A stretch of DNA of 64,000 nt from an uncultured Candidatus Poseidoniales archaeon (GTDB lineage Archaea; Thermoplasmatota; Poseidoniia; Poseidoniales; Thalassarchaeaceae), in contig CAZPCY010000003.1 of NCBI GenBank assembly GCA_964585295.1, forward strand, positions 66,990 through 130,989, read 5' to 3'. How positions within the stretch are numbered: the stretch's first letter is position 1; each line of letters opens with the position of its first letter. This document shows, in pieces, positions 14,165-54,728 of the stretch. The translations under genes and the position numbers were made by a program. The notes under the pieces were generated by a model that was not told the origin of the DNA, ran no database searches, and saw only the letters and a program-made list of their open reading frames with translations.

Positions 14165-15160
14165 TCATTCGGCGTTTCCCGATAGGCTGCGAACGAGAAT
14201 CAGAAGCAACTGGTTCCTAGGCGTCGGTATGCCGTGCGATTCCCCGCGTCGCACGATCTCTCCACAAAGAGCGTCAATCTCCGTCCGCCTTCCAGCCATC
14301 ACGTCCTGCAGCATGCTGCACCTGTTCCCTGCCGTCGATGCGATGACTTCATCCAGTTTGGACAGCATCTCATCGGCATCCAACTCGACACCCTCCGAAC
14401 GAGCGACCAAGAGAGCCTCAATCAGAACGCCATGGGCCTGCTCATGTAATTCTCTTGAGGCTAGCAGGGCGCCGTTCTCGACCCCACAGATCGCCGCGAT
14501 TGGGTTGATTGCGACATTCAGTAGCAACTTCCGCCAAAGAACCTGGCGCATGTCGCCATGCCATATCGGATCAAGTCCGGCCTGTTCAAATGCCGATAGA
14601 AGACGTCCCTCTGGTGACGATGCGGATGGAGTGCCATCATCGGATCTATGATTGGGGTGAGGGCCAATGTCTACTACCCCCCTTCCAGCCCACCTAACCT
14701 CGTTTGGGCCAAGCCGGGTCGCACCATGCAGCGTCGAACCCGAGAGGACTCTGGCGGAACCAAGCATCTCTCCCAGGCGCTCCGCATGGCCGAGTCCATT
14801 CTGGAGGCTAATGGCCATACCTGTGGACTCTAGATGGAGATCGGCGAGGAGCGCTAGGGAGGAGGTGTCCGGCGCCTTGCCGCAGACGATCGCGTACGAG
14901 ATCGGATCGATACCTTCGCTGGTCGCGGGTGAATCCGAATCAACGACTTCGAATCGACTCGCCGGAAAATGGTTCACCTCTGCTTCAAGGCCGGTGATTC
15001 TGACGCCATCTATCGCCATTGCCGCTGCCGAATCACCTCGAGAGAATAGAATCAATTCAGCATCGGTGGAGGCGAGTCTCCCTGCCACCAACCCACCGAT
15101 AGCACCGACGCCGAAGATGCCAATCCTGAGGCGGGCGCTCATGTCGCCCCGACTCCGCAA
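14165..15160 (-). CDS. panE: 2-dehydropantoate 2-reductase (ketopantoate reductase family)
   Basis: N-terminal Rossmann 'IGIFGVGAIGGLVAGRLA', 'LWRKLLLNVAINPIAAICG' and 'NRCSMLQD' motifs of the ApbA/PanE family. Confidence 0.7.
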   Translation of the reverse strand: MRSRGDMSARLRIGIFGVGAIGGLVAGRLASTDAELILFSRGDSAAAMAIDGVRITGLEAEVNHFPASRFEVVDSDSPATSEGIDPISYAIVCGKAPDTSSLALLADLHLESTGMAISLQNGLGHAERLGEMLGSARVLSGSTLHGATRLGPNEVRWAGRGVVDIGPHPNHRSDDGTPSASSPEGRLLSAFEQAGLDPIWHGDMRQVLWRKLLLNVAINPIAAICGVENGALLASRELHEQAHGVLIEALLVARSEGVELDADEMLSKLDEVIASTAGNRCSMLQDVMAGRRTEIDALCGEIVRRGESHGIPTPRNQLLLILVRSLSGNAE

Positions 15161-28186: not shown

Positions 28187-31100
28187 TCACCTCATCCCTC
28201 CGCCGCGGCTCTTGCCGACCGGAGCCATACTCTGCGCTCCGGAGCCGCGTGGTGGAGCCGGCATCATAGGTGCGCCACGGCCCTTACCATGAGGTTGTGC
28301 GCGTGCTTCCGGTGGAGGTGAAGCTGGACCCGACCGTTGCCTCTGCGGCGTCATCATCCCCTCATACGAGGTCCGTGTGTTCTGCTTCATCTTCCGTTGC
28401 AGGCGGAGTTCGGATTCCTCCTTCGCGGCGCCGCGGCGCATCATCCCGACCACTAACAATCCCATGGTGATCAAGGAGACCAATCCGATGGCGGCGGGCA
28501 ATCCATACTCCAGCAAGACATCCGCCTCGATCGCGTCGGGATCGATTAACAGCATGGTCGATGACTCCACCGCCGCCGGCTCGTCTGAGCCTGCATCCCT
28601 AGCCGAGATGGTCGTGTCTAACTCACCGGGTTCCGCCGAGGTGACGCGTCCGGTGAAAATCACAGTCGAGGTAGCGCCTTCGGTGCCGGCAGCCCCGAGT
28701 TCCACAGTCTGCACGGAGATGGGTGCTATCACTCCCTTTGGCACGGTCCATTCCACGGTTATGGTGAGTGGCACATCACCCGGATTAGTAAGCGTGCAGG
28801 TGACCTCGAACTCGCCACTGTCCGAGATGTTCTCTGCTATCGAATCGGGGGAGCAAGTCATGGTAATCTCCGCTTGGTTCCGCTCAGAATCGTCAGGCCA
28901 CCGGTCTGGGTCGACTGCACCAGGGGCGGTATTGTCGCCGTAGCCATCGCCGTCAGCATCCGTCCACTGTGTGGGCTCGTTCGGGAAGGAGTCCTGCGAA
29001 TCGGCGTAACCATCGGAGTCAGAATCAGCGCAGCCGAGGACTTCCCCCTCCGTGCTACTTCCATGCTCATCCGGGCAATCATCTCCCATCGTTCCCAGCG
29101 GGTCGTCACCGAATCCATCGAAGTCGGAGTCGGAATGCTGTGTGGCGTCCATCGGGAGGAAGTCGCCGGCATCCGACCAGCCGTCAGCATCCGTGTCTAG
29201 ACAGCCAAGAACATCGGCACTGGAATTGCCCGCAGTACTCGGGCAGTAATCCGGTGAGAAGCCGTTCGGATTGTCTCCATAGCCGTCTCCATCGCTGTCG
29301 TTCCACTGCGAGGCGTCATCGTCGAACGCATCCGCATCGTTCGACCAACCATCACCATCACCATCGGCGCATCCGCGTTTGTCGTGGAAGCTCGTGCCGG
29401 GCGTAGATAGGCAGTCATCAGCGCTGTTGCCGGTCGTGTTATCCCCATACCCATCGGCGTCGCTGTCCATCCACTGGGTCTCATCACCAGGGAATGCATC
29501 AGCGCCATCGGCGACCGTCCAAGAGGCGGACGGGTCGCTCCTGCCATCGCCATCAGTGTCGGGACAGCCAATCCGATCGGCTGTCGAAGTTCCTGAATGA
29601 GCCGGACAGGCATCGGCTGAATCCCCAACACCATCGCCGTCTACATCACTAGAGTGACCAGGGTCATTCGGCAGCGCGTCATCCGAATCTCGCACACCGT
29701 CTCCATCCGAGTCCGGACAACCGAATGCACCGATGGTGGAATTGCCCGCTTCGGTCGGGCAGGAATCGGGTTGCGTGCCGGTCGGCGAGTCACCGTAGCC
29801 GTCGCCGTCCGTGTCGGCGCTCTGCGAGGCGTCGTTCGGGAAGTCATCGGAACCATCTCCCACCCCGTCCCCATCACCGTCCGTCGTCTCATTGGCGTCA
29901 TTCGGGAAGTCGTCGTTTGGATCTGTCACGCCATCGCCGTCCGAATCGTCAATGCATCCGTCGGCGTCCTGATCCCATCCGCTGGAGTTCTCCGTTGGAC
30001 AGGAGTCGATGTCGTTGCCGATGCCATCTCCGTCGCCATCGTCGATGCAGCCATCCTGATTCGCATCCCATCCGGTCGAGGAGATGGTAGGACAGGCATC
30101 CGAGTTGTCGCCTATCGAGTCGCCATCCGTGTCGGCCCATTCGGAGGAATCTGAGATGAAGGCGTCGTTGGCATCGCTCTGTCCATCGCCGTCGGAATCA
30201 ACGCACCCGAATCGGTCCAGGGTCGAATTCCCCACCGTCGTTGGGCAGGCGTCTCCTTGGGCACCGGCGGCATTGTCGCCGAATCCATCACCGTCCGCAT
30301 CCGCCCACTGTGTGGGCTCGTTCGGCAGTGCATCGGCGCCGTCGGAAGTAGTCCAGTTCGTGTCGGAATTCGATCGTCCGTCGCCATCTGAGTCGACGCA
30401 ACCTGAGCGGTCGACGCTTGAGTTACCCACTACCGATGGACAGTCATCTCCGTCCACACCGGTATCGTTGTCCCCAAATCCGTCGCCATCGCTGTCGGCG
30501 TGCTGGGTGCCTTCGTTCGGGAAGTGGTCCTGATCGTCGGCCCACCCATCACCATCTCCGTCGAGGCAGCCCAAGGTGCCGTTCTGGGTCGAAGTCCCAG
30601 ATATGGTCGGGCAGTCATCAGCATCGGTGCCGCTCGAATTATCTCCGTATCCGTCACCGTCGGTATCGTTCCATTGGCTGTCGTCGTTGGGCAGCACATC
30701 GTGGTCGTCAGCCCAGCCATCGGAGTCCGAGTCGGCGCATCCTAGGATGGGATGGGTGGAATCGCCTGTCACCGTCGGACATCCGTCGGGCGAATTGCCG
30801 GAAGAGTTGTCTCCAAATCCATCGCCATCCGAATCGATGTACTGGGAGGAATCGGTCGGGAATGCATCAGCGCCATCAGACACGGTCCAGCCGCCGTCGG
30901 CGTCGGACCAACCGTCATCGTCGCTGTCGATACAGCCGTTGCGATCCTCCGACGAGTTCCCCGCGGTGGAGCCGCATGAGTCGGCGCCGTCGGAGGTGCT
31001 CCAGACAGCATCCACATCCGACCAGCCATCGGAATCCGAGTCCGGACATCCTTGTCTGTCGATGGTCGATGTGCCGACCGTTGCGGTGCAATCGTCGGAA

Positions 31101-33577
31101 TCGCTGCCGGTCGGATTGTCGCCGAAGCCATCGAAGTCAGCGTCCGCCCATTGGGTCGCATCGTTAGCGAACGCGTCGGCGCCGTCGTTTACCGTCCATC
31201 CCGAGTCTGGATTTGAGCGACCATCGCCATCCGAGTCCGTGCAGCCGGCGCGATCGATGGTCGAGGTACCGGAGATGCTTGGACAATCATCCGCTCCATC
31301 GATGAATCCGTCGCCATCGGCATCGGCGCTAATGTTCGTCATCGCGAGGCTGCGCGACAAGGCGAGCGCGAAGTGCTGAGGGCCAACCGCCACAGAGGTG
31401 CCAACGACGTGTACCTCCCAAGTGCCGCTGGATGGATTGGAGAGGATCTCTCCCACGAGGTTGTCTCGGTCGTTTGAGACATTTGTCCAAGTGCCATCAG
31501 GTGCCTTCAGGTGGAGGTCGAGATCGTTGACTAGATGGTTGCTGACGGAAGGGGTCGATTCAGGATCGGTCCACGATAGCACCACACGGAGATCGGAAGT
31601 CCCGGAAGGAACAGTGAAGCGGAACGCTCGCTCCTCGTTCGTAGAGACGGTCTCACCTTCGATCCAACTGCCATTCATCATGGTCGACATGTTCACCCGA
31701 CCCCATCCCTCGTGGTCGTTGGGAGCGTCCTCTCCTGCGCCGTTGGTACTCGACGAATACTGTCCAGCCATGTCGCTCGCACCTGCGGTGAAAATCGCCT
31801 TTACTAGGGCCGATGAAGGGTCGGTGTGATTCTCGTTCTCGATCAGATGCTCCAGCAGTAGTGCGGTGGCCCCGGCTGTGAGTGGAGTGGCCATCGAGGT
31901 CCCTCCCATGTAGGTGTACGAGGAGTTGTAAGCGAGCCATCCGGTGTCGCTGGTCGATCGCGATTTGGTGGAGAGGATGAAGGTCCCAGGAGCTGAGACT
32001 TCAGGCTTCAGGCGCTGGTCATCGGTCGGGCCTCGGCTTGAGAAAGCCGCCATCCCTTCCGGATGGCCTGTGTTGTCATCGCTCCTGATTGGCTCAGCAT
32101 ATTCGGAACCCCACGACCCTGGGTAGTAGCAGCTGCCATCACCTTGGCAGAGGACCGTTCTGCCGTTCTCCGATGCACCTACCGTAAGCACGTTCTTGGC
32201 GGTCGCAGGAGCGCCCAAGGAATCCAGATCTATCTCGCCATCCTGATTCCCGTCAGCGCCTTCGTTGGCGGCGGCGAAGAGGACGGTCAGATTGCGGTGC
32301 ACCCTAGCGCCAATGTCAGCCTGCATCGAAGTCGATGTGTACTGGCCGGCGACATCACTGCCCCACGAATTCGTGTGGACGCGGCTGCCATTCGCCACCG
32401 CGTCGTCGTACATGTGGGAAAGATTGGATGGAAAGCCGATTAGGTAGGATTTACCATCCCGGTTGCAATAGATGTCGACGGCTTGGAAGACGAGGTGTGC
32501 TTCGGTCGCGGAGCCGATGATGCTGCCACCGGAATCAGTGCCGTCACCGAGGACCGAACCGGCGACGTGGGTTCCATGTCCATCGATATCGGATGCACCA
32601 TCGTTGGCGTTGCCTCCACAGTAGTTGTGGTTGCCTTGACTCATCGAATAGGAGACGATGCCTGTGATATGGTCGCGCAAGTCGGGGTGCATGTTGCTGT
32701 TGTTGACGCCGTTGTCCAGACCGGTGTCTGCCACGGTTACCGTGATGCCGCTTCCGTCCAATCCATTCCAAGACGAGTCGAGACCCTGCATGTTGCTGGT
32801 TGACTCTACCCAATCGACCTCCATCACCTCGCGGCCGACGTCGTTGAAAGTGCGCCGTTCGAACGACGGCTCGATGAACTCGACCTCATCGAGGGTCGAG
32901 AGGTGAGCGATTCCACGAGTCGTCGCATCTACGCTGATGAAGCGGTCATCGTGTGACAGGATACTGACCGAACCTAGTGGGGCACCGTACAAGTCTGGCG
33001 CTTCCTCGCCGGACAGAACCAAGGTGAAGACACCGCGGCCGCGCTCGTGCAGCCTCGCTTCGTACTCGCCAAGCAGAGCGGCGGCGGTCCACTCGTGCAT
33101 GCGATCGATCGGATCGAAGCGCGCCATCGCGATGACTCCGGAATCAGCGAGTTCAGTCGAGCGATGGCCCGAAAGCAAGCAGTGGAATGACTGCGGTGGA
33201 ATGAACGAACGACACTCGATGCCGACGGATTGGAGTTCTCCTTTCCACTCGGTGGGAACAGGGGCCTCATGCGCTAGGATCATCCAACCGTCGAGAGCGC
33301 CGTTCCCGAACGAGGAGCGCCAATCCCGCTGCTGCACGAGAATTGAATCGCGGTGTCGAAGATGAGCGACGACTGACCCCTCCTCCTTCTCACCCCAACC
33401 GTGCTCGGCATCGCCGATTGGCTCCACGCCGATGGCGCGCAGTGAATCAAGATCGATGTTCGGTTCAATCGTCGACCCAGAGCCATCTGAACCAGCAGCC
33501 AGCGCTGGCGCGAGAGGTTGGATCAGCATCAGGAGAGTGAGCGTCAGGCATCTGGCGGTCGTTGCGCGGGTGAACAT
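28187..33577 (-). CDS. secreted subtilisin-like serine peptidase (S8) with long array of thrombospondin type-3 Ca-binding repeats, C-terminal TM anchor and P/G/R-rich tail
   Basis: Signal peptide 'MFTRATTARCLTLTLLMLIQPLAPALAAG'. S8 catalytic-triad motifs 'VTVADTGLD', 'HGTHVAGSV' and 'GGTSMATPLTAGATALL'. More than 25 repeats of the form 'DSDGDGxxDxxDxFPND'. A hydrophobic helix near the C-terminus is followed by 'RRGAAKEE...' and a Pro/Gly/Arg-rich tail. Confidence 0.8.
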   Translation of the reverse strand: MFTRATTARCLTLTLLMLIQPLAPALAAGSDGSGSTIEPNIDLDSLRAIGVEPIGDAEHGWGEKEEGSVVAHLRHRDSILVQQRDWRSSFGNGALDGWMILAHEAPVPTEWKGELQSVGIECRSFIPPQSFHCLLSGHRSTELADSGVIAMARFDPIDRMHEWTAAALLGEYEARLHERGRGVFTLVLSGEEAPDLYGAPLGSVSILSHDDRFISVDATTRGIAHLSTLDEVEFIEPSFERRTFNDVGREVMEVDWVESTSNMQGLDSSWNGLDGSGITVTVADTGLDNGVNNSNMHPDLRDHITGIVSYSMSQGNHNYCGGNANDGASDIDGHGTHVAGSVLGDGTDSGGSIIGSATEAHLVFQAVDIYCNRDGKSYLIGFPSNLSHMYDDAVANGSRVHTNSWGSDVAGQYTSTSMQADIGARVHRNLTVLFAAANEGADGNQDGEIDLDSLGAPATAKNVLTVGASENGRTVLCQGDGSCYYPGSWGSEYAEPIRSDDNTGHPEGMAAFSSRGPTDDQRLKPEVSAPGTFILSTKSRSTSDTGWLAYNSSYTYMGGTSMATPLTAGATALLLEHLIENENHTDPSSALVKAIFTAGASDMAGQYSSSTNGAGEDAPNDHEGWGRVNMSTMMNGSWIEGETVSTNEERAFRFTVPSGTSDLRVVLSWTDPESTPSVSNHLVNDLDLHLKAPDGTWTNVSNDRDNLVGEILSNPSSGTWEVHVVGTSVAVGPQHFALALSRSLAMTNISADADGDGFIDGADDCPSISGTSTIDRAGCTDSDGDGRSNPDSGWTVNDGADAFANDATQWADADFDGFGDNPTGSDSDDCTATVGTSTIDRQGCPDSDSDGWSDVDAVWSTSDGADSCGSTAGNSSEDRNGCIDSDDDGWSDADGGWTVSDGADAFPTDSSQYIDSDGDGFGDNSSGNSPDGCPTVTGDSTHPILGCADSDSDGWADDHDVLPNDDSQWNDTDGDGYGDNSSGTDADDCPTISGTSTQNGTLGCLDGDGDGWADDQDHFPNEGTQHADSDGDGFGDNDTGVDGDDCPSVVGNSSVDRSGCVDSDGDGRSNSDTNWTTSDGADALPNEPTQWADADGDGFGDNAAGAQGDACPTTVGNSTLDRFGCVDSDGDGQSDANDAFISDSSEWADTDGDSIGDNSDACPTISSTGWDANQDGCIDDGDGDGIGNDIDSCPTENSSGWDQDADGCIDDSDGDGVTDPNDDFPNDANETTDGDGDGVGDGSDDFPNDASQSADTDGDGYGDSPTGTQPDSCPTEAGNSTIGAFGCPDSDGDGVRDSDDALPNDPGHSSDVDGDGVGDSADACPAHSGTSTADRIGCPDTDGDGRSDPSASWTVADGADAFPGDETQWMDSDADGYGDNTTGNSADDCLSTPGTSFHDKRGCADGDGDGWSNDADAFDDDASQWNDSDGDGYGDNPNGFSPDYCPSTAGNSSADVLGCLDTDADGWSDAGDFLPMDATQHSDSDFDGFGDDPLGTMGDDCPDEHGSSTEGEVLGCADSDSDGYADSQDSFPNEPTQWTDADGDGYGDNTAPGAVDPDRWPDDSERNQAEITMTCSPDSIAENISDSGEFEVTCTLTNPGDVPLTITVEWTVPKGVIAPISVQTVELGAAGTEGATSTVIFTGRVTSAEPGELDTTISARDAGSDEPAAVESSTMLLIDPDAIEADVLLEYGLPAAIGLVSLITMGLLVVGMMRRGAAKEESELRLQRKMKQNTRTSYEGMMTPQRQRSGPASPPPEARAQPHGKGRGAPMMPAPPRGSGAQSMAPVGKSRGGGMR

Positions 33578-42004: not shown

Positions 42005-42997
42005 TCAAGGTGTCAATTGGAACCAGCCGAAGCTCGGTTCCATAATCTCTGCCCGTTCGTCCCGAAGATCGTCTATCGCATCCTCGAAGACCTGCAACGG
42101 GATGCCTTGCGAGGTGCAAGCGTGTCGCAGGGCGTCGTAGTGCACTCCTTCACCTTGGTCACCGGCCCGAATCGCCCCTAGTATGATGTCATCTATATCG
42201 GCTGAGGCGGGCGGTTCAGAGAGTTCTGGTTCGCTCTCTGATGGTGCAGAATCGTAGCCTGCGAGACCGCTCTCTTGGTCATTGCCTTCATCCTCATCGA
42301 CGCTCGGAGCGCTGACGTCTTCCGCTCGGCCGGATGCCATCGCCAAGGCGTGCAAGACGCCGACTCGGTACGACTCGGCGTCGAAGGGCCCGTAGTGGCC
42401 ACGAGCCGAGATCAAGCCGTCGAGGAGATCTTCGGGAACTCCCGCCGCCCGCATCGAATCCCTGTCTGAATCGGCATCGGATGCACGCTCCTGAGCGTCG
42501 ATCCTGCGGAGGGTTGCATCGGCTGCGTCTGCCAACCAGCATGCATATCGCGACCTGTCGATGACTCTCATTGACTCGGTACGGACGCTGGTGTATACCG
42601 AGCCCTCGTCATTGGTCCAGTGTCTGGCACGCCCCATCATTAGCATCAGGAAGCGATCGCCTCGCTCGAATCTGGCGAGCAGTTCCTCGGCATCGCCGTG
42701 GAGTTCCGGCTGGAAGTGGCCGATGTCGAACATGTGCACTCCGGTCGGATCTCGGAGTTGGCCTCGATAGGTAGGACCGCTTTCGCCGTCTCGCCTCTCC
42801 ATCCGATCGATTACGCCGGCGACCATCATCCGAGACACCCTCGCTCCGAGTTTCGTGACGATGAAAGTAGGGTCGTACTGCCCCTCCCCCCCCTCCGGCA
42901 GGGTCGCCTGCGCGTACTCAAGTGCGAAGAGGTGGATGGAAGGCTGCCGGCGACGGCTTTGAGCCTCGCTGACGGTCACAGAACCACCTCCCAGCAC
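42005..42997 (-). CDS. RPA-associated protein / RPA32-like (OB fold plus C-terminal winged helix)
   Basis: N-terminal OB-fold-like 'YDPTFIVTKLGARVSRMMVAGVIDRMERRDGESGPTYRGQLRDPTGVHMFDIGHF'. C-terminal 'GVHYDALRHACTSQGIPLQVFEDAIDDLRDERAEIMEP' resembles the RPA32 wH domain. It lies immediately downstream of rpa, overlapping by 22 nt, as in euryarchaeal rpa-rpap operons. Confidence 0.5.
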   Translation of the reverse strand: MLGGGSVTVSEAQSRRRQPSIHLFALEYAQATLPEGGEGQYDPTFIVTKLGARVSRMMVAGVIDRMERRDGESGPTYRGQLRDPTGVHMFDIGHFQPELHGDAEELLARFERGDRFLMLMMGRARHWTNDEGSVYTSVRTESMRVIDRSRYACWLADAADATLRRIDAQERASDADSDRDSMRAAGVPEDLLDGLISARGHYGPFDAESYRVGVLHALAMASGRAEDVSAPSVDEDEGNDQESGLAGYDSAPSESEPELSEPPASADIDDIILGAIRAGDQGEGVHYDALRHACTSQGIPLQVFEDAIDDLRDERAEIMEPSFGWFQLTP

Positions 42998-44652
42998 TCC
43001 ATCACTGCAGCCGCTCTCGCTTCGCCGTCCATCTCCTTCCGCTCGATTCTATCAGCCAGCAGCATCACACCTCGATCATCGACTATGGCGCGCCCCCTAA
43101 TATCGACCGATGTTCCGAACAAATCAGCTACTAGAGCCTCGTGGAAGGCGATGGGGCCACCATCATCGATGCGCGCCTTCACCTCGTCGAAACTCTCACC
43201 GAGATGACGCTCAGACGGCTCTCTTCCGAGCACCACGGATGCGGTGGACAAGCCGTCGTCGATGACCATACGCAATCGCAGATCCTCGTTGCCCTCGACG
43301 TGCCCGTGCTCGTGACAGGAGCCATCACGGAGGACCCGACGGCATTCCACACAACGGCGAACGATTCCACTGTCGTCCCGGACCAAAACGATGGTACCGC
43401 TGGTTCGGATGCCGCTGCGACTGCCACCAGACTCCAAATCGGATAGAGAGAGGTCGAACACGTGAGTCTCCGGGTCTATCTCATCCCACGGAGCGTCGGA
43501 GAGCACCTCAATTTGATCCTCTCGATCGACCGTAAGATCGGGAGTTCCCTGCCAAGCCCGCACGCGGACTCCGGAGAGACTCAAGAACGAGCCTGAATCG
43601 ATTCCCGCATCGCACCATACCGTCATCCGGCAGCGGCCGGTGGGGTCGATCACCTCGCCGCTCCAGAGCGAACGATCGTTGCCCTCGTCATCTTGGAAGG
43701 TCCGTTGTGTCAGTGATTCCACTTGGACGGTGACATGCACTTCCCTCATGCCGTCGCGGAGACCCGAGATCGTAGCCTGGGAGACCGACTCCAGAGATTC
43801 GGCGTCCGGGAACGCATTGTCGATGTAGACCTCGACCTTCGTGCGGTCGCCGATGTTAATCTCCGGTGTTTCCCTGAATCGCCGGATGCTGGCACCCTCT
43901 ATCCGTACCAGTTGCCCTTCTCCGTGCTCAAATGGACCCCAACAGGTGAAGCCGATCGAACCGGACTGGTCGGCGAGGCGTCCTCGAACGATGTCAATCG
44001 AGCCAGTGCCATCTCGCCGATGGATCACATCGGGCTTCGCGGAGAGGACGCGAGCGACGACCGAGACCATTCCCTGCATGTCGTGCACCGCTTCGATGCT
44101 GACCGGCTCTTCGGGGGCGATGACGGGCGCCGATCCCTCACGCAGGGTGGTGACGCGGCTGCCGCGATTCACATTGATTGAACGCTTGCCCTGCCACTCG
44201 TTGACCGAGACGCCTTCTAGGCGGACAATCGAGCCGGGCGTGAGTCGCGATGAGTGGTCGCCCCAATCTTTGAAGTCCCATCTCGTCCTCTCGCCGCCCT
44301 CGGTCCAAGGGCGATCCTCGATCCAACCGAAGGATATCTGACGCTCTTCGCCTCGCACCATCTGGACCCTCGGATTGCAGGTTATCACCTCCACCTCGAT
44401 GGTGACGTTGCGGTCGTCGGCTCCGAGGTCATCGAATCGTTCCACCTTCCTCTCTGTGGGAGCGCTCTGGCTAGGCATCTCCGGCTCGCTCGCTCCGGCG
44501 CTGAACTTCTTGGTGACGGAACGAATGGCGTCCTCAGGTGGAATGAGGAACTCCTCTCGATATCGGATGAACTCCGCCCTAATCTCCTCCTTTGAGGCAT
44601 CTGGGCACGCCTCGGCCACAATCTCAACTTGGTGCTCCAATCCATCTTCCAT
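42976..44652 (-). CDS. rpa: replication protein A (multi-OB-fold ssDNA-binding protein with Cys3His zinc finger)
   Basis: Several OB-fold-sized blocks, plus 'RRCVECRRVLRDGSCHEHGH' (C-x2-C-x9-C-x2-H) as in archaeal/eukaryotic RPA70. The ORF track starts at 44838. The ATG at 44652 (MEDGLEHQ...) is preceded by GGAGGGA and removes a Pro-rich leader; which start is used is uncertain. Confidence 0.7.
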   Translation of the reverse strand: MEDGLEHQVEIVAEACPDASKEEIRAEFIRYREEFLIPPEDAIRSVTKKFSAGASEPEMPSQSAPTERKVERFDDLGADDRNVTIEVEVITCNPRVQMVRGEERQISFGWIEDRPWTEGGERTRWDFKDWGDHSSRLTPGSIVRLEGVSVNEWQGKRSINVNRGSRVTTLREGSAPVIAPEEPVSIEAVHDMQGMVSVVARVLSAKPDVIHRRDGTGSIDIVRGRLADQSGSIGFTCWGPFEHGEGQLVRIEGASIRRFRETPEINIGDRTKVEVYIDNAFPDAESLESVSQATISGLRDGMREVHVTVQVESLTQRTFQDDEGNDRSLWSGEVIDPTGRCRMTVWCDAGIDSGSFLSLSGVRVRAWQGTPDLTVDREDQIEVLSDAPWDEIDPETHVFDLSLSDLESGGSRSGIRTSGTIVLVRDDSGIVRRCVECRRVLRDGSCHEHGHVEGNEDLRLRMVIDDGLSTASVVLGREPSERHLGESFDEVKARIDDGGPIAFHEALVADLFGTSVDIRGRAIVDDRGVMLLADRIERKEMDGEARAAAVMECWEVVL

Positions 44653-44905
44653 CCGCGTTCTCCCTCCGGGTATTGAGGAGGCGTCAAGAGTGGTAGTCAT
44701 CCCGACATGCGCGGGCCGAGCGATCGCCTCTGTGAGGCGTTCCGGGGGACGGCTCGGCGTGCGGCTGGGGAAGACTTGGCACTCCATCACCTCCGGCTTT
44801 GGAGCAGCCTGTATCGACGGTTCTTGAACAATCGGCATCGATTCCCCTCAATGTGGCAATCCCCGGCGGCGGAGAGGTCATCATCCCGTAGCGAGTCGCC
44901 GCACC

Positions 44906-46039: not shown

Positions 46040-46792
46040 TTGATCACTTGGATGAATTCGCCTGAAAACATCAGTCTTCACGCCTCAGAAGCACTTCAGA
46101 AGGTGGAAAATCCGATATTACCCCACCCTTCACCAGATGCTATGAGATCTGCCACAGAAGTCTTCTCGGAGTGGGCCGATCTCGGCAAGGATTCCGGAAT
46201 GGAGAGTGGTCATTCCCCCGCTGTGAGGGAGATTCTAGAGGCGGCGATCGATGAGATGGGAGAAGAAGTGTTTCGGGCCATCGATGCGGGCTGCGGCAAC
46301 GGCTGGGTCGTTCGGATTCTCGCCTCGATGGAGAAATGCGAATCGGCGATTGGCATCGATGGTGCTGAATCGATGATAGGCAAGGCGAATATGATTGACT
46401 CGGAAGGCACCTACATACATGCCGACCTGCAATCATGGATTCCCTCAGAACCTGTGAATCTGGTTCATTCGATGGAAGTCTTGTACTACCTAGAGGACAT
46501 CCCTGCCTTCCTACGTTCCGTTGCGGATTACTGGTTGTGCGAGGATGGGATATTCGCTTTCGGAGTGGATCACTATGAAGAGAACGAAGATTGTCATGAA
46601 TGGTCGGAGAAGGTCGGGGTCAGCATGGCCATGTTCGGTGAGGGCGAATGGCGAGGTATGGTCGAAGAGGCGGGTTTTGAGATTCTGCGGATGTTCAGGG
46701 CGGCCTCTTGTGATGGTTGGGCTGGCACCTTGGCGATCGTTGCCAGCAAAGGTTCACGCGGTGGCCGATCAGAAGTTCAACCGAGAGGATGA
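46040..46792 (+). CDS. class I SAM-dependent methyltransferase
   Basis: Motif I 'AIDAGCGNGWVV' and acidic motif II 'AIGIDGAE'. The start may be internal (M at 'MRSATEVF'). Confidence 0.55.
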   Translation: MITWMNSPENISLHASEALQKVENPILPHPSPDAMRSATEVFSEWADLGKDSGMESGHSPAVREILEAAIDEMGEEVFRAIDAGCGNGWVVRILASMEKCESAIGIDGAESMIGKANMIDSEGTYIHADLQSWIPSEPVNLVHSMEVLYYLEDIPAFLRSVADYWLCEDGIFAFGVDHYEENEDCHEWSEKVGVSMAMFGEGEWRGMVEEAGFEILRMFRAASCDGWAGTLAIVASKGSRGGRSEVQPRG

Positions 46793-49490: not shown

Positions 49491-49596
49491 GCGCCCATCC
49501 ACTCCTCCGTCATTGGACCTTGGCCATCCACCAACTCCTCTGAGCAGACCTAGCGAAAGGGTTGAAGCGACGGTGCGGCTGGAGCGGTCGCGAACG

Positions 49597-49669
49597 CGGC
49601 ATTAACTCAGTTGGGAGAGTGCCAGACTGAAGATCTGGAAGTCGGTGGTTCAAGCCCGCCATGCCGCAT
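49597..49669 (+). tRNA. tRNA-Phe (anticodon GAA), CCA not encoded
   Basis: Manual cloverleaf. Acceptor GCGGCAT/ATGCCGC (7 bp). D-arm ACTC-AGTTGGGA-GAGT. Anticodon arm CCAGA-CTGAAGA-TCTGG (GAA at 49630-49632). Variable loop AAGTC. T-arm GGTGG-TTCAAGC-CCGCC. Discriminator A at 49669. 73 nt. Confidence 0.75.
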
Positions 49670-49760: not shown

Positions 49761-50912
49761 TCAGAAGACGTCGTCCTCGTCCTCTTCCTCCGAGAAATCG
49801 AACTTCTTGTCCTTCTTCGGTTTCTTCGCTGCTGCTTTCTTCGGCTTCTTCGCTGCTGCCTTCTGCTGCCCGACGTCCGCGTCCTTCTTTTCGGCAGAGG
49901 CCTTCTCGGCCGCCTCACGCTTGCGACGTTCCTCCTTCTCGCGTTCCGCCAGTTCCTCGGGATCGAGACCCGCCTCGATCGCGAGTTTCATGCGCCGATC
50001 CTCGAGAGCCTTGCGCTCCAGCAGTTTGTGCTTCGACTTCTCGTACTGCTGGAGCATGTACATCGCATCGTGCTCCAACAAAGGTGAATCGGAGATAATG
50101 GTGATATCGAGCCAGTCGCCATCCTCGGATAAGAACTCAGCCAGCGGCTCAAACTTCAGGTCGGACTTCTTCAGTTGCGTATAGTGTAGGGCATTCCCAA
50201 GACGGTGCTCGATGCCGCTGAAGTGGCAGTAGAATTCCTTGCCCCCGAGCGTCTCGCGCACCTGATCAAACAACTCACCGAAGTCCTCGCTGGTTCGCAA
50301 GGAGCCGTGCCCGCGGGCATGGATGTGGGCCATGTTGAGGACCGGAATGGTCCCCTCGACATGATTGCAGACCTCCAAAACTTCGTCGAGCGTCCCCCAC
50401 AATTCCTGCCGACCACTAGTCTCGATGCCAATCAGCGAGGGCTTCTCCTCTACGACCCATGGAAATGCAGCATAGTCTTCAGCTTCCTCCTCGTTACCCC
50501 AAAGCATCTCGCATCGCTCGACGACGCCAGCGAATACGTTAGCGACGTGCGCGTTGGCCTCGGGACCCGGACTGAATTCTCCGTACGGCCCGACATGATA
50601 GGTGATGTGCCTAGCATTGATCACCTTCGCCGCCTGCATTGATGCCTCCATCTTGGCTAGGGTACGCTGCAGACCGCGACGATCGCCGAGAATCTCGGCG
50701 TAGTACGGGCCATGCAGGTTCATCTCAAACTCCGCCTTGTGCGACAGGATACCTGCCTGCCAATACTCGTTGTAATGATGCGGCTGCACCGTGCGCACCG
50801 TCTGAATCTCCATCGTCTCCAGTCCGAGCGAGGTGATGTCGTCCATTCCTTCGACTATCGTCCTACCTTTGCACGATAGTGGAACACCCGCAGGTCCGAG
50901 TCTCAATGGCAC
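49761..50912 (-). CDS. nfo: endonuclease IV (AP endonuclease family 2, TIM barrel) with lysine-rich C-terminal tail
   Basis: Nfo-like blocks ('GIETMEIQ', 'HITYHVGPYG', 'HIHARGHGSL', 'CHFSGIEHRLGN'). The C-terminal ~55 aa read 'KKDADVGQQKAAAKKPKKAAAKKPKKDKKFDFSEEEDEDDVF'. GTG start. Confidence 0.8.
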   Translation of the reverse strand: MPLRLGPAGVPLSCKGRTIVEGMDDITSLGLETMEIQTVRTVQPHHYNEYWQAGILSHKAEFEMNLHGPYYAEILGDRRGLQRTLAKMEASMQAAKVINARHITYHVGPYGEFSPGPEANAHVANVFAGVVERCEMLWGNEEEAEDYAAFPWVVEEKPSLIGIETSGRQELWGTLDEVLEVCNHVEGTIPVLNMAHIHARGHGSLRTSEDFGELFDQVRETLGGKEFYCHFSGIEHRLGNALHYTQLKKSDLKFEPLAEFLSEDGDWLDITIISDSPLLEHDAMYMLQQYEKSKHKLLERKALEDRRMKLAIEAGLDPEELAEREKEERRKREAAEKASAEKKDADVGQQKAAAKKPKKAAAKKPKKDKKFDFSEEEDEDDVF

Positions 50913-51129
50913 GCCCGGGACCCCCGACCTTCCGCCCGAAAGGATGACCCTTCAAAAGGAGTGTTCTCAAACCGTGTCGGTTCCGGTGGCAACTAATAGT
51001 GTTCCAACCAAACGAATTGGCCGAATCTAGGCCAACCGAGAGCATGGAAGGGTCGCGATTCATGAGCCATCCGGAAACTAGCGGGGAATGTTCCCGAGGC
51101 CGTCCGACACCAATGTGTTCGAGACAGCG

Positions 51130-51137
51130 TTAAAATC
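51130..51137 (+). promoter_or_regulatory. TATA box candidate (TTAAAATC) centred ~26 bp upstream of the GTG start at 51159
   Basis: Only AT-rich octamer in the 246-bp gap. The spacing is classic for a leaderless archaeal transcript. Confidence 0.4.
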
Positions 51138-51158: not shown

Positions 51159-54100
51159 GTGCCGAAAGGACAGCACGCGACTGCGCTCGTCGCCCTATTG
51201 GTTCTCGCCCCCCTACTTGCTGCAACTGGCAGCACGCTGGCGAGCCCTGTCGACAAGAGCGGCGATGAGAGCTATCCTGGGACGAGCGGCGAACCGATAC
51301 CAACGAGCTACTACCCTATCGACGGACACGGAGTCAACGCAGCCAATCCAGAGTGGAACGCACAGAACTCCGATCTCGGGCGTAAGGTGCCATCGATGGC
51401 GGAGAACGGGTCGGGCCTAGCCTTCCCCGACCTTCCTTCGCCGAGAACAATCTCAAATGCCGTCTGCAGCCAACAGCAAGGACTGGTTCCCGACGAAACG
51501 GGCCTCTCCGACTACAACTGGCTCTGGGGACAGTTCATCACCCACGAAGTCGATTTCACATTGACGCAGAACGGCAGGGTGAGCGGCATCCCGGAGACCG
51601 CGAACATTCCGGTCGAGGCGCATGACCCGCACTTCGGAGCGCCGGCGGGGGGCGCCGCCTTGATCCCATTCTTCCGATCGCTGTACAACTCCTCGACCGG
51701 AGAGGACAGCAGTGATCCGCGGCAGCATCCAAACTCGGTCACCGGGTGGATAGACGGCTCGGTAATCTATGGTTCCAAGGACTCCGTCGCAAGTTGGCTT
51801 CGGACCGGCGAGAGTGGACGACTGAAGGTGAGCGAGGATGCCTACGGTCATCTGCTCCCAATCGCGGCGGATGATGACGACACTGCGCCTGGGATGAGTT
51901 TCGTCGGCTTCAGTGCCGATGTTCGTTACATCGCCGGTGATTCGCGCGCCAACGAGCACGCCTCCTTGATGGCTATCCATGTCCTGTTCGTGCGCGAGCA
52001 CAATAGACTGGCCGAGGAGATTCAAGAGCGCAATCCGGATTGGAACGACGAGCAGGTGTTCCAGCGTACTAGGAAGATCGTCACGGCGCTGATTCAGGTG
52101 GTTAACTACGAGGAGTTCCTTCCCTCTCTCGGCATCACCCTTCCGAACTACACCGGTTACGACGAAGCCATAGATCCGACGGTGACGAACTCGTTCGCCA
52201 CGGTAGCCTTCCGGATGGGACACAGCCAGATCGGCCCGATGGTCATGCGGTTGGAGGAGAACAGGACTCCGATCCCACAGGGCCATGTCCTGATGAAGGA
52301 CGCCTTCTGGAAGACCTCGGTCGTCACCGAGGGGGGTGGAATCGGTCCGCTGCTGCGCGGCTTGGCGTTCACCACCCAGGAAGCGAACGACATCTACTTC
52401 CACGACGATCTGCGAAACACCCTGTTTGGGATGCCGGGGGCTGGCGGTGCGGACCTATGCGCAATCGACATTCAGCGAGGACGCGACCACGGAGTCGCCG
52501 ACTACAACAGCCTGAGGGAGGTGATTGGCCTGCCAAAGGTCGGCAACTGGAGCGATGTGACCAGCGATGCCGAAGTAGAGTCCCGCCTCTCCTCTGTCTA
52601 CTCGGACTTGGATCGCGTGGACGGGCTCATGGGTATGCTGGCTGAGGATCATCTGAACGGCTCCGTCCTAGGACCGACCATGCACGCTCTGATCAAAGAT
52701 CAGTTCCTCAGACTCCGTGATGGAGACCCACTCTTCTACCTGAACGATCCGGAACTCACAGACATCGCCACGAACCTGACCGGCACCACGCTCGCCGAGA
52801 TCATTCTGCGAAACACTGAGATCGAGGCAATCCAGTGCAATGTCTTCTTCGCCGAGACGAACGGCTCCCGATTCGATTGCAACAACGCGAATCTTGAGAC
52901 GCCCCCATCCTATGCCGTCGATGGATCGACTGATTCGAATCCGGTCGTGGCGGAGTTTGGATTCACGGACGTCACCGCTTCTAGCGGGCTCTATGAGGTT
53001 GACTCTGGCCCGCTTACGGACTGGGCTGCGTATGGACCAAGCATCGCTTGGGGCGATTGCGACGGAGATCGTGATCAGGACGTCTTCATCGGCGCTCGCT
53101 TCGACCATCTGGGATGGGAGAGCGGAGAGACGACCACCGGCCTCAACCACCTGATGATCAATGACGGTGATTCCACCTTCAGCGACGGCACCACTGCCAG
53201 CGGCATCGCGGCGGATAACTCGACGACTCTGGGGGCTACCTGGGCCGACTACGACGATGACGGCGACCTTGACCTCTATCTGTCGAACTACGGAGTCGCT
53301 GACTTCGGTGACGATTACGCGACGAGCGGCGCTGCGAACCAACTCTACGAGAATGCCGGAGATTGCACTTTCACCGATGTGACAGAGTCGACCGGGGTTG
53401 GAAACCACGGCCATTCATCGGGCTCCGTCTGGGTAGACTTCGACCACGATGGCGACCTCGACCTCTACTCGTTGAACATCGGCATGATCGATGAGAACAA
53501 CACCGTGATTCGCTCCGCGACCAACATCCTCTATCGCAACCAACTGACTGAATCAGGGAGCCCGACCTTCATCGACTGGACGGATGAGGCTGGTGGACTC
53601 TACGGTCAACCGGAGCGAGCGAACAGCGACAACGACATCAAATATGGAGAACTGGAATCGATTGCACCGACCGCACCCCCCTCCCCTTCCGCGACTGCGG
53701 TCGTGAAGGAGTACCTAGGTCAGGAGGGGAAGGGAACCGGGGTCTCGTGGGCGGCTATTTGGTTCGACTACGACGGAGATGGTTGGGAGGACCTCTATGT
53801 CGCAAGCGACTTTGGCATCTCCCCCCTCTACAGGAATGATCGCGATGGCACCTTCACGTTGGTGACGTTTGAGGCTGACATGAAGGAGCCGGGGACGGGA
53901 ATGGGGGTGCATGCGGCAGATGTCGACGGGGATGGAGATCTCGATTTATGCCAATCCAACTTCGGTCCGAACTTCCTTTGGCGCAATGACGGAGATGGTA
54001 CATTCACTCAGGATGGAGTAAACTCCGGAATCCACGAGAATGTGCTAGTGAACTGGGACTGTCACTTCTACGACATCGACCTCGATCGCGATGCCGATCT

Positions 54101-54728
54101 ATGGTTCGGAGTCGGCAGAATCAATCCCTTCACGAGTTTCAACAATAATTCCCTCTACCTCAACGATGGGAATGGCCAATTCACCGACGTCATAGAGCAG
54201 GTTGGACTCGCGGGACAGCATAAGACGATGGGGGCCGCTTGGGCGGACTTCGATGGGGATGGAGATCTCGACCTTCTGATGGGCAATTCCAATGGCCCCC
54301 TGAATCTGTTCCGCAATGACGCGGTCGAGAGCGGCTCCGGCGACTGGCTGAAGGTCGATCTTGAAGGACTCGGAATCGCCGGCGGCGGCTCGAATAGGAA
54401 TGGTGTCGGTGCGATGGTGACCGTCCGGATGGCGGATGGTGACACGATGAAACAGATGGCATACGCCGGCTCCGGCTTCCTCGGCACATCCGAACCTCAC
54501 GTCCACTTCGGATTGGGCAACGACTCTCGAATCGATTACGTCGCCGTCCTATGGTCGACCGGTCATCTGCAGATAATCGAGGATGTGAGCGCCAACACGG
54601 TGCTGACCGTGAACGAGGAGTTGCCCCCCCAACGAAACAATGCTGTGACGGGGTTCCTTCTCGGCATCCTGCTGCTGTCACTGGTGGCTCTCCTCTGGCC
54701 TGCCATCAAGGCGGCTAGAGCCTCCTAA
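51159..54728 (+). CDS. secreted, C-terminally membrane-anchored animal-heme-peroxidase (peroxidase-cyclooxygenase superfamily) domain fused to FG-GAP/VCBS-type Ca-binding beta-propeller repeats
   Basis: Signal peptide 'ATALVALLVLAPLLAATGS'. Distal-side 'WLWGQFITHEVDF', 'IAGDSRANEHASL', proximal His in 'MAIHVLFVREHNRLAEEI', and 'CAIDIQRGRDHGVADYNSLRE', which is near-identical to the peroxidasin/LPO motif. Residues ~600-1150 carry more than 7 repeats such as 'WADYDDDGDLDLYLSNYG', 'WVDFDHDGDLDLYSLN', 'WFDYDGDGWEDLYVASDFG', 'ADVDGDGDLDLCQSNFG' and 'WADFDGDGDLDLLMGNSNG'. The C-terminal TM is 'VTGFLLGILLLSLVALLWPAI'. Confidence 0.8.
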   Translation: MPKGQHATALVALLVLAPLLAATGSTLASPVDKSGDESYPGTSGEPIPTSYYPIDGHGVNAANPEWNAQNSDLGRKVPSMAENGSGLAFPDLPSPRTISNAVCSQQQGLVPDETGLSDYNWLWGQFITHEVDFTLTQNGRVSGIPETANIPVEAHDPHFGAPAGGAALIPFFRSLYNSSTGEDSSDPRQHPNSVTGWIDGSVIYGSKDSVASWLRTGESGRLKVSEDAYGHLLPIAADDDDTAPGMSFVGFSADVRYIAGDSRANEHASLMAIHVLFVREHNRLAEEIQERNPDWNDEQVFQRTRKIVTALIQVVNYEEFLPSLGITLPNYTGYDEAIDPTVTNSFATVAFRMGHSQIGPMVMRLEENRTPIPQGHVLMKDAFWKTSVVTEGGGIGPLLRGLAFTTQEANDIYFHDDLRNTLFGMPGAGGADLCAIDIQRGRDHGVADYNSLREVIGLPKVGNWSDVTSDAEVESRLSSVYSDLDRVDGLMGMLAEDHLNGSVLGPTMHALIKDQFLRLRDGDPLFYLNDPELTDIATNLTGTTLAEIILRNTEIEAIQCNVFFAETNGSRFDCNNANLETPPSYAVDGSTDSNPVVAEFGFTDVTASSGLYEVDSGPLTDWAAYGPSIAWGDCDGDRDQDVFIGARFDHLGWESGETTTGLNHLMINDGDSTFSDGTTASGIAADNSTTLGATWADYDDDGDLDLYLSNYGVADFGDDYATSGAANQLYENAGDCTFTDVTESTGVGNHGHSSGSVWVDFDHDGDLDLYSLNIGMIDENNTVIRSATNILYRNQLTESGSPTFIDWTDEAGGLYGQPERANSDNDIKYGELESIAPTAPPSPSATAVVKEYLGQEGKGTGVSWAAIWFDYDGDGWEDLYVASDFGISPLYRNDRDGTFTLVTFEADMKEPGTGMGVHAADVDGDGDLDLCQSNFGPNFLWRNDGDGTFTQDGVNSGIHENVLVNWDCHFYDIDLDRDADLWFGVGRINPFTSFNNNSLYLNDGNGQFTDVIEQVGLAGQHKTMGAAWADFDGDGDLDLLMGNSNGPLNLFRNDAVESGSGDWLKVDLEGLGIAGGGSNRNGVGAMVTVRMADGDTMKQMAYAGSGFLGTSEPHVHFGLGNDSRIDYVAVLWSTGHLQIIEDVSANTVLTVNEELPPQRNNAVTGFLLGILLLSLVALLWPAIKAARAS

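Follow-up and report, generated by a model that had tools for sequence, protein, structure and literature searches.

A gene encoding a heme peroxidase of the peroxidase-cyclooxygenase superfamily fused to a CRTAC1-type module was identified in a 64,000-nucleotide stretch of DNA (hereinafter referred to as the window) from an uncultured Thalassarchaeaceae (Marine Group II) archaeon. The open reading frame (ORF) is a genuine gene, whose product contained, in order, a signal peptide, an An_peroxidase domain, a linker, a CRTAC1-type propeller, a UnbV_ASPIC sandwich, and a transmembrane anchor (Table 1). A protein 100% identical to it is already present in public collections (P0001/P0121/P0122), on contigs of up to 211 kb. 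Taken as a whole, we regard it as fairly probable that the protein is a type-I surface-anchored peroxidase-CRTAC1 ectoenzyme, predicted to consume H2O2 by oxidizing iodide or thiocyanate.

The Pfam model An_peroxidase (PF03098) matched the N-terminal half of the window protein over profile positions 2-530 of 530 (E = 6.8e-135; 451 bits against a cut-off of 25). Sequence matches in the PDB included the cyanobacterial peroxidase CyanoPOX (8s6c; E = 1e-112, 39% identity) and DdPoxA (6erc; E = 1.5e-91). An AlphaFold2 model generated from 54 homologues (mean pLDDT 81.9, pTM 0.62) consisted of a helical N-domain, a beta-propeller, a beta-sandwich, and a terminal helix, and pLDDT values of the peroxidase core were mostly 85-95. 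When the N-domain was compared with the PDB by Foldseek, TM-scores of 0.90 to 8s6c, 0.90 to 6erc, and 0.82 to myeloperoxidase (MPO) were obtained. An earlier note on this DNA had placed the protein in the peroxidase-cyclooxygenase superfamily, and the full-length Pfam match, the fold, and an intact catalytic core (distal triad, proximal His, ester-forming Glu, and Ca site, described below) agree with that placement: the protein is a heme peroxidase of this superfamily.

Residue numbering was calibrated on MPO (R239-S-S-E242-M243) and on the DdPoxA triads Gln97-His101-Arg233 and His325-Asn403-Arg406 (PMC5787809), and conservation was counted in an archaeal set of 70 clusters (46 fused and 24 short) and a comparison set of 50 non-archaeal homologues. 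Each residue of the distal triad (Q125, H129, and R263) was found in 70/70 archaeal clusters, as was E266, the counterpart of the ester-forming Glu in the motif R-x-x-E. H355, located in AFRMGH at the position of the proximal heme ligand, was invariant in the homologue alignment and in 70/70 archaeal clusters, and the propionate-binding R352 and R440 were invariant across the same clusters. The distal Ca2+ site, formed in MPO by D96, T168, F170, D172, and S174, was occupied by E130, T195, W197, D199, and S201; at the Ca-ligand position of E130, most homologues have Asp. The catalytic residues and the distal Ca site were thus invariant or nearly so in the archaeal set.

The heme pocket was altered at three positions. 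The heme-ester Asp position (MPO Asp94) was occupied by Thr128, with Thr or Ser in 70/70 archaeal clusters and Asp in 46/50 non-archaeal homologues. At the position of MPO Met243, H267 was present, and this His was shared by 70/70 archaeal clusters, as against Asn or Gln in non-archaeal proteins. The partner position for the proximal hydrogen bond was occupied by Asp437 (Asp in 70/70 archaeal clusters, Asn in 46/50 non-archaeal homologues). A proximal His-Asn pair is typical of the superfamily, whose text in the 2015 classification contains no archaeal members (PMC4420034), and the role of the proximal Asn has been described (PMC4420034; PMC3533774). The motifs quoted in the earlier note (GQFITHE, GDSRANE, IHVLFVREHNRLA, and AIDIQRGRDHGVADYN) were all found in the protein, but its statement that essentially every hallmark block is present was too strong, given the replacement of the ester Asp by Thr128 and of the proximal Asn by Asp437. 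Its assignment of the proximal His to IHVLFVREHNRLA was also mistaken: that residue, the counterpart of MPO His250, does not ligate the heme, and the true proximal His is H355. As judged from the alignments, the window protein lacks the ester Asp and the proximal Asn, features of the halogenating families (families 1-3 and 6).

Since the Asp ester residue is missing (Ile in DdPoxA, Thr here), the window enzyme would be linked to its heme by no more than one ester, formed through Glu266 in the manner of DdPoxA. DdPoxA, with no ester Asp and a single Glu ester, has a lower Fe(III)/Fe(II) potential and reacts with iodide and thiocyanate at >1e8 M-1 s-1 and with bromide at 15 M-1 s-1; chloride is not oxidized (PMC5787809). 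The E'0 of Fe(III)/Fe(II) in DdPoxA is -0.276 V. From general peroxidase chemistry, the swap of Asn to Asp should render the proximal His more anionic, with a further drop in the reduction potential. Poor oxidation of bromide and no oxidation of chloride would be predicted, because at most one ester bond is combined with a more anionic His-Asp proximal pair. On the kinetics of DdPoxA and of CyanoPOX, which prefers iodide (PMC11776367), together with the Asn-to-Asp change, an iodide/thiocyanate or general peroxidase would be expected. By analogy, the window protein would work most like DdPoxA (PDB 6erc; PMC5787809), although it is no close member of the DdPoxA family. Both share the superfamily, the fold, the distal Gln-His-Arg, and the ester Glu, and both lack the ester Asp. 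DdPoxA, a eukaryotic glycoprotein, is soluble, consists of one domain, and has a proximal His-Asn-Arg and Asn at the MPO-Met243 position, whereas the window protein has His-Asp-Arg, His at the MPO-Met243 position, a membrane anchor, and a 590-aa CRTAC1 module.

CyanoPOX (8s6c), whose best substrate is iodide, is the closest solved sequence, and is likewise prokaryotic and of the same fold (PMC11776367). In cyanobacterial peroxidases, unlike in the window protein, the ester Asp and the proximal Asn are both retained; these enzymes consist of a single domain or bear dockerin or hemolysin-type repeats, and have neither a CRTAC1 module nor a C-terminal anchor. LspPOX is a related cyanobacterial peroxidase. 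Other named types were compared by domain content. Peroxidasin (PXDN), like the window protein, combines a peroxidase of this superfamily with domains for extracellular interaction; it has two ester links and makes HOBr, and the window protein is no orthologue of animal peroxidasin. The LRR, Ig, and vWC domains of peroxidasin were not found by Pfam, and the KEGG label PXDN is an annotation transfer. Peroxinectin was rejected because neither KGD nor RGD is present in the window protein, and peroxidockerin and peroxicin (families 6 and 5) were rejected because no dockerin or hemolysin-type/PERCAL repeats were found by Pfam; such dockerin or hemolysin-type repeats do occur in the bacterial homologues P0016, P0104, P0109, and P0112.

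In the C-terminal half, five FG-GAP_3 matches (PF13517, formerly the "VCBS" model; E = 2.4e-37) and FG-GAP PF01839 were detected by Pfam. Seven DxDxDGxxD Ca loops were counted (starting at residues 633, 697, 760, 870, 921, 972, and 1030), in agreement with the at least seven DxDxDG repeats that the earlier note had read; a DNA repeat family (D1) coincided with six of the seven. Foldseek matched this half to murine CRTAC1 (9etn; E = 6.9e-27, TM-score 0.73), with which it shares an FG-GAP/VCBS Ca propeller followed by UnbV_ASPIC. The C-terminal half is therefore a CRTAC1/ASPIC-type module, a more specific assignment than the FG-GAP/VCBS propeller of the earlier note. It differs from animal CRTAC1 in lying behind a peroxidase, in ending in a transmembrane helix, and in sharing 19% identity. 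Animal CRTAC1 has a C-terminal EGF-like Ca-binding domain; no EGF-like domain was found in the window protein by Pfam, and a transmembrane helix follows ASPIC instead.

The hydrophobic N-terminal segment spans residues 7-29. A C-terminal transmembrane segment was found in 46/46 fused homologues and in 120/120 stand-alone CRTAC1 homologues. Because a signal peptide is combined with a single C-terminal anchor, both seen in hydropathy and as helices in the model, the protein is probably tethered at the cell surface, as had been proposed. Twin-arginine-like motifs before the hydrophobic core, such as would serve Tat export of a folded heme protein, were detected in 12/41 fused proteins, 4/24 short peroxidases, and 3/118 stand-alone CRTAC1 proteins (e.g., P0003, P0005, P0010, P0013, P0092, and P0094, and in loci L006 and L007); no twin-arginine motif was found in the N-terminus of the window protein. 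Processing of the PGF-CTERM/archaeosortase type was considered and rejected, since there was no NCBIfam match and no PGF motif, and the C-termini of homologues share hydrophobicity and no motif. NCBIfam gave no match for the whole protein or for its C-terminal half.

The same architecture was common among relatives, contrary to the rarity in archaea that the earlier note had implied: fused proteins of 1176-1299 aa formed about 46 clusters (90% identity), some of them on contigs of about 2 Mb and some from Tara Oceans catalogues. In other Poseidoniales, the peroxidase (620-720 aa) and a "CRTAC1 family protein" (620-670 aa) were encoded separately, and both had a signal peptide and a C-terminal anchor of their own. 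Stand-alone "CRTAC1 family proteins" were abundant in Thalassarchaeaceae and were 47-57% identical to the C-terminal half of the window protein. The search with this half listed stand-alone proteins and none of the known fused ones, and its list was treated as incomplete.

The relatives' loci were obtained from a scan of one genome per species, which yielded 24 loci with close relatives, and several arrangements were observed. In the window, in L001-L003, and probably in L004, the genes were fused at a site between a TIM-barrel gene and RibB. At the same TIM-barrel/RibB site, L006, L007, L009, L011, and L012 carried split, convergent, abutting genes. The split genes were separated by an intervening rearrangement of about 3 kb in L008 and L021, in which both genes were seen, and L010 and L020 were consistent with this arrangement, with one gene each. 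In L013-L017, the CRTAC1 gene was divergent from two tandem peroxidase genes, and in L019 the tandem peroxidase pair alone was present. The linker of the window protein is the site at which split homologues have the stalk and transmembrane segment of the peroxidase and the signal peptide of CRTAC1. In addition, the convergent split genes met tail to tail precisely at the position of the fusion junction of the window protein, and their stop-to-stop frames overlapped by about 40-56 nt at the 3' ends (L006:11805-11845, L007:11867-11923, and L009:11805-11845).

Fused proteins never formed one clade (0/60 bootstraps in the peroxidase tree and 0/100 in the CRTAC1-module tree), and the L001 group stood apart from a large, well-supported fused clade. 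Because fused forms are non-monophyletic and the L001 group is separate, the trees indicate that fusion or fission took place no fewer than two times in Poseidoniales. The window protein was placed with the main fused clade in 47/60 (peroxidase tree) and 34/100 (CRTAC1 tree) bootstraps, and with the L001 group in 26/100 (CRTAC1 tree); it may belong with either of the two fused lineages. No paralogues of either half were found elsewhere in the window.

The upstream copies of the tandem peroxidase pairs (L013:9866-11803, L014:9860-11812, L015:9890-11800, L016:9932-11860, and L017:9932-11875) lie beside a catalytic copy and are divergent from a CRTAC1 gene of 765-835 aa. In these copies, the distal His was replaced by Asn, the distal Gln was lost, the proximal His was replaced by Gly or Glu, and Arg333 was lost, while the signal peptide and the transmembrane anchor were retained. 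Since both the distal and the proximal His are lost, the upstream copy looks like a heme-less pseudo-peroxidase. Such degenerate copies in the same lineage raise the thought that the window protein is itself a catalytically inert adhesion or scaffold protein with a peroxidase fold, like the peroxidase-homology domain of DUOX. With the distal Gln, His, and Arg, Glu266, the proximal His, and both propionate Arg residues invariant in the archaeal set, this idea is hardly credible for the window protein.

Stony corals (Montipora foliosa / M. capricornis; XP_068681507; P0096, P0099, and P0156-P0159) likewise encode both modules as a single chain, in uncharacterized CRTAC1-peroxidase fusions of 1276-1404 aa that also have a hydrophobic segment at the C-terminus. 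The coral proteins differ from the window protein in that the propeller and ASPIC come first and the peroxidase second, the ester residues are replaced by Ser and Val, and the proximal Asn is kept. Judging by these sequences, the reverse-order fusion of corals is clearly independent of the archaeal one.

For the favored surface ectoenzyme, the following mode of action is proposed. The signal peptide would export the protein, and the single C-terminal helix would retain it in the membrane, from which the ASPIC beta-sandwich, the Ca2+-loaded CRTAC1-type propeller, and, outermost, the heme peroxidase would extend in this order. Ambient H2O2 would form compound I in the heme site, and compound I would be reduced by two-electron donors (iodide or thiocyanate) or by organic one-electron donors. 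Most likely, the enzyme serves the cell to remove or exploit extracellular peroxide at its surface. The CRTAC1 module would probably have two functions, holding the peroxidase off the membrane like a stalk and, through Ca-dependent binding, bringing it into position, and in split genomes the peroxidase and the CRTAC1 protein would probably act as a two-protein complex.

A role in handling extracellular peroxide is favored by links with peroxiredoxin, KatG, and thioredoxin reductase and by the distribution reported for katG, which is complementary. A thioredoxin reductase gene lies 2.6 kb downstream of the peroxidase gene in the window. Members of the fused clade with low GC (about 40%; P0020 and P0035) are encoded in a cluster consisting of an M24 peptidase, the fusion, a 271-281-aa protein, and an AhpC/TSA peroxiredoxin (L050:8001-15226, L051:8001-15399, and L052:8001-13022), with KatG next in L050 and L051 and not in L052. 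No family match was obtained for the 271-281-aa protein, and the 271-aa copy of L050 had no NCBIfam match. The low-GC cluster looks like a small peroxide-stress neighborhood. In a published survey, a gene labeled "PXDN" was found mainly in Marine Group IIb (MGIIb), and katG/gpx mainly in MGIIa (PMC10783094).

An alternative is a more aggressive use of the same chemistry, in which the protein is a surface generator of hypoiodous or hypothiocyanous acid or of radicals directed against bacteria, grazers, viruses, or phytoplankton-derived polymers, and the propeller would bind the target surface. The closest characterized relatives (DdPoxA and LPO) are antimicrobial oxidizers of halide and thiocyanate, and CRTAC1-type and integrin-type propellers are ligand-binding modules. 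Such a use is rather unlikely, because no neighboring H2O2-generating oxidase, immunity gene, or polymer-degradation genes were found in the window, the conserved partners elsewhere are peroxide-detoxifying enzymes, and a membrane-tethered source of oxidants would expose the producer cell.

We consider it less likely still that the enzyme acts like peroxidasin, cross-linking envelope or S-layer proteins through dityrosine or sulfilimine-type bonds while the CRTAC1 module binds the substrate protein. Peroxidasin likewise combines a peroxidase with protein-interaction domains (PMC3533774), CRTAC1 is an extracellular-matrix protein, and the independent archaeal and coral fusions suggest that the propeller presents something to the heme site. 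The chemistry of peroxidasin, however, requires HOBr, of which a one-ester enzyme is predicted to make little, the protein has no LRR, Ig, or vWC domain by Pfam, and no gene for an envelope protein is conserved beside the peroxidase gene.

Several points weigh against the ectoenzyme that we favor. It is by analogy that the protein is assigned heme binding, an ester link through Glu266, and a preference among halides, and the redox effects of the Asn-to-Asp change and of the His at the Met243 position are predictions. The model would also require heme b to be loaded onto a Sec-type exported protein outside the archaeal cell, twin-arginine-like motifs being found in a minority of homologues and absent here. 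With a pTM of 0.62, the orientation of the domains to one another in the model is just moderately supported. Ligand binding by the propeller is likewise a prediction. The clustering with AhpC and KatG belongs to another subclade and not to the window. Finally, no peroxidase was found near 25/25 bacterial CRTAC1 loci, with flanks of up to 10 kb per side; a general peroxidase-CRTAC1 neighborhood in bacteria was rejected on this count, so the partnership is not general.

The peroxidase gene has long resided in Marine Group II, is typical of that lineage, and is vertically inherited. The closest genomic relatives were nearly all metagenome-assembled genomes (MAGs) of Candidatus Poseidoniales / Thalassarchaeaceae, and nearly all of the 24 loci came from such MAGs (Marine Group IIb), the closest relative being 74% identical. 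The gene order was kept in the relatives' loci: the TIM-barrel gene on the minus strand, the peroxidase gene, four riboflavin genes, thioredoxin reductase, and a ThiF-family gene. Composition was host-like throughout, with a GC content at third codon positions (GC3) of 0.717 against 0.675 +/- 0.044 for the window genes, the lowest distance in relative synonymous codon usage (RSCU) among the large genes of the window, and a tetranucleotide correlation with the window at the 31st percentile; an atypical composition, for which the earlier note had suggested a check, was thus not observed. Across 17 homologous loci with GC from 38% to 62%, gene GC followed flank GC (r = 0.995, mean difference 0.010). 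In a neighbor-joining tree, the archaeal peroxidases were monophyletic with respect to bacterial homologues in 60/60 bootstraps. Synteny, host-like composition, GC tracking, and archaeal monophyly together indicate an old resident of the order.

A recent foreign acquisition, in the form of a genomic islet inserted beside tRNA-Phe, is highly improbable. This origin had been put forward in the earlier note on account of the tRNA gene 1.5 kb away, and it is also the one to which the mainly bacterial and eukaryotic distribution of the superfamily and the nesting of the archaeal clade among bacterial sequences would lend themselves. Orthologues occupy the same site in many MAGs, however, and tRNA-Phe adjoins RNase PH in 10/11 related loci regardless of the arrangement of the peroxidase, and is therefore part of a conserved block. 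As the earlier note had itself observed, no integrase was found among the neighboring genes and no direct repeat was present, with no att-like repeat flanking the peroxidase gene. A tRNA-associated genomic island was rejected on all its marks: integrase, repeat of the tRNA 3' end, atypical composition, and patchy presence. The conserved slot and the monophyly of the archaeal clade likewise speak against a foreign origin of this kind. The earlier note had itself named a common, vertically inherited architecture in the host lineage as grounds for refutation, and such an architecture is what was observed. It is plausible that the ancestor of the order received the gene from bacteria long ago, because most of the superfamily belongs to bacteria and eukaryotes and bacterial sequences surround the archaeal clade, the nearest non-archaeal branch in the neighbor-joining tree being cyanobacterial.

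The coordinates of the gene, its domains, and its heme pocket motifs are listed in Table 1. An in-frame stop is located at 51063-51065, and no ATG, GTG, or TTG was found between this stop and position 51159, so that an earlier start is impossible. The TATA-like box suggests that the peroxidase gene may have its own promoter and a leaderless mRNA. The encoded protein was strongly acidic (D+E 176 versus K+R 62).

Table 1. Features of the peroxidase-CRTAC1 gene and adjacent elements (positions in the window).
Feature	Position	Strand	Evidence
tRNA-Phe, 1.5 kb upstream of the peroxidase gene	49596-49668		
TATA-like box TTAAAA, 24-29 nt 5' of the GTG start	51130..51135	+	Read from the sequence
Complete CDS, 1189 aa, GTG start	51159..54728	+	Uninterrupted ORF
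Signal-peptide-like N-terminus, residues 1-29, MPKGQH-ATALVALLVLAPLLAA-TGSTLA/SP	51159..51245	+	Hydropathy; model helix 2-24; N-termini of homologues
Heme peroxidase domain PF03098, residues 52-563	51312..52847	+	Pfam; PDB sequence matches; Foldseek
Distal motif Q125-F-I-T128-H129-E130	51531..51548	+	Alignments to MPO, DdPoxA, and CyanoPOX
R263-A-N-E266-H267: distal Arg, ester-forming Glu of homologues, clade-specific His	51945..51959	+	Alignments; counts
R352-M-G-H355; H355 = proximal heme ligand position (MPO His336, DdPoxA His325)	52212..52223	+	Calibrated alignments
D437-I-Q-R440; proximal hydrogen-bond partner position (MPO Asn421, DdPoxA Asn403); R440 = MPO Arg424	52467..52478	+	Alignments
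Inter-domain linker, residues 564-600, low-confidence model	52848..52958	+	pLDDT <50 at 581-593
FG-GAP/VCBS beta-propeller, residues ~601-1075	52959..54383	+	Pfam; Ca loops; Foldseek
UnbV_ASPIC beta-sandwich, residues 1082-1150, membrane-proximal	54402..54608	+	Pfam PF07593 (E = 2.3e-17); model strands 1086-1152
C-terminal transmembrane helix (1161-1184), basic tail KAARAS, stop	54639..54728	+	Hydropathy; model helix 1161-1188

The neighborhood of the gene was archaeal, as had been noted earlier, and of an ordinary housekeeping kind, with an exosome-type RNase PH, an A-type ATPase subunit I, and a riboflavin cluster containing a candidate RibL. This cluster comprised four adjoining genes for DHBP synthase (RibB), a cytidylyltransferase-like protein (the candidate RibL), a lumazine-binding-domain riboflavin synthase, and lumazine synthase. 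Other neighbors encoded SMC, a 1796-aa subtilase, thioredoxin reductase, and a ThiF-family protein. The divergent TIM-barrel neighbor (49761-50912, minus strand) was xylose-isomerase-like/AP_endonuc_2 and 75-81% identical in relatives. The C-terminal tail of its product was rich in Lys, Ala, and Pro and then acidic, arising in part from a 24-nt tandem repeat (49813-49860), and NCBIfam gave no match for the protein. In rearranged genomes, the TIM-barrel gene remained beside the CRTAC1 gene on the same strand.

Elsewhere in the window, the 1796-aa protein (28187-33577, minus strand) contained a single Peptidase_S8 domain at residues 275-626, leaving more than 1100 residues without a family match. 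Of the 41 window ORFs compared, the one at 46040-46792 (plus strand) was lowest both in GC (0.533) and in GC3 (0.574), and it overlaps the start of an ion-channel gene; it may be no real gene, or else the most atypical gene of the window. Two ORFs, of 848 aa (15139-17685, minus strand) and 620 aa (42976-44838, minus strand), had no Pfam match at E <= 0.001.

An animal-type peroxidase in an archaeon is not in itself new, since its presence in Marine Group IIb has been tabulated as "PXDN" (PMC10783094), and current understanding is not overturned by an archaeal peroxidase-CRTAC1 fusion. Literature searches returned no relevant paper on a fusion of a peroxidase with ASPIC/FG-GAP or on the structure of CRTAC1. 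In the literature searched, the invariant altered heme pocket of the archaeal clade (Asp ester absent, ester Glu followed by His, and a His-Asp pair on the proximal side), the repeatedly re-engineered CRTAC1 partnership (fused, convergent, divergent, and rearranged), and the independent origin of the same pairing in corals were undescribed. These findings make it possible to test in what way halide specificity depends on covalent heme links and on the proximal hydrogen bond, what job CRTAC1-type propellers do, and how extracellular peroxide is handled, possibly with iodide oxidation, in abundant planktonic archaea that are often without KatG.

A bolder and doubtful proposal is that the peroxidase and the CRTAC1 propeller constitute a dedicated two-component extracellular oxidative module, repeatedly assembled, in which the propeller would present a ligand or a surface to the heme site. 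Repeated assembly would be represented by the joining or splitting events in Marine Group II and the one reverse-order fusion in corals. If true, the archaeal system would offer a first biochemical way into what the CRTAC1 family does, and the active site, with its His-Asp pair and single ester, would represent a new functional family of the superfamily. Marine Group II are among the most abundant archaea of the surface ocean, and the enzyme could then be an unrecognized sink of H2O2 in seawater and a source of oxidized iodine.

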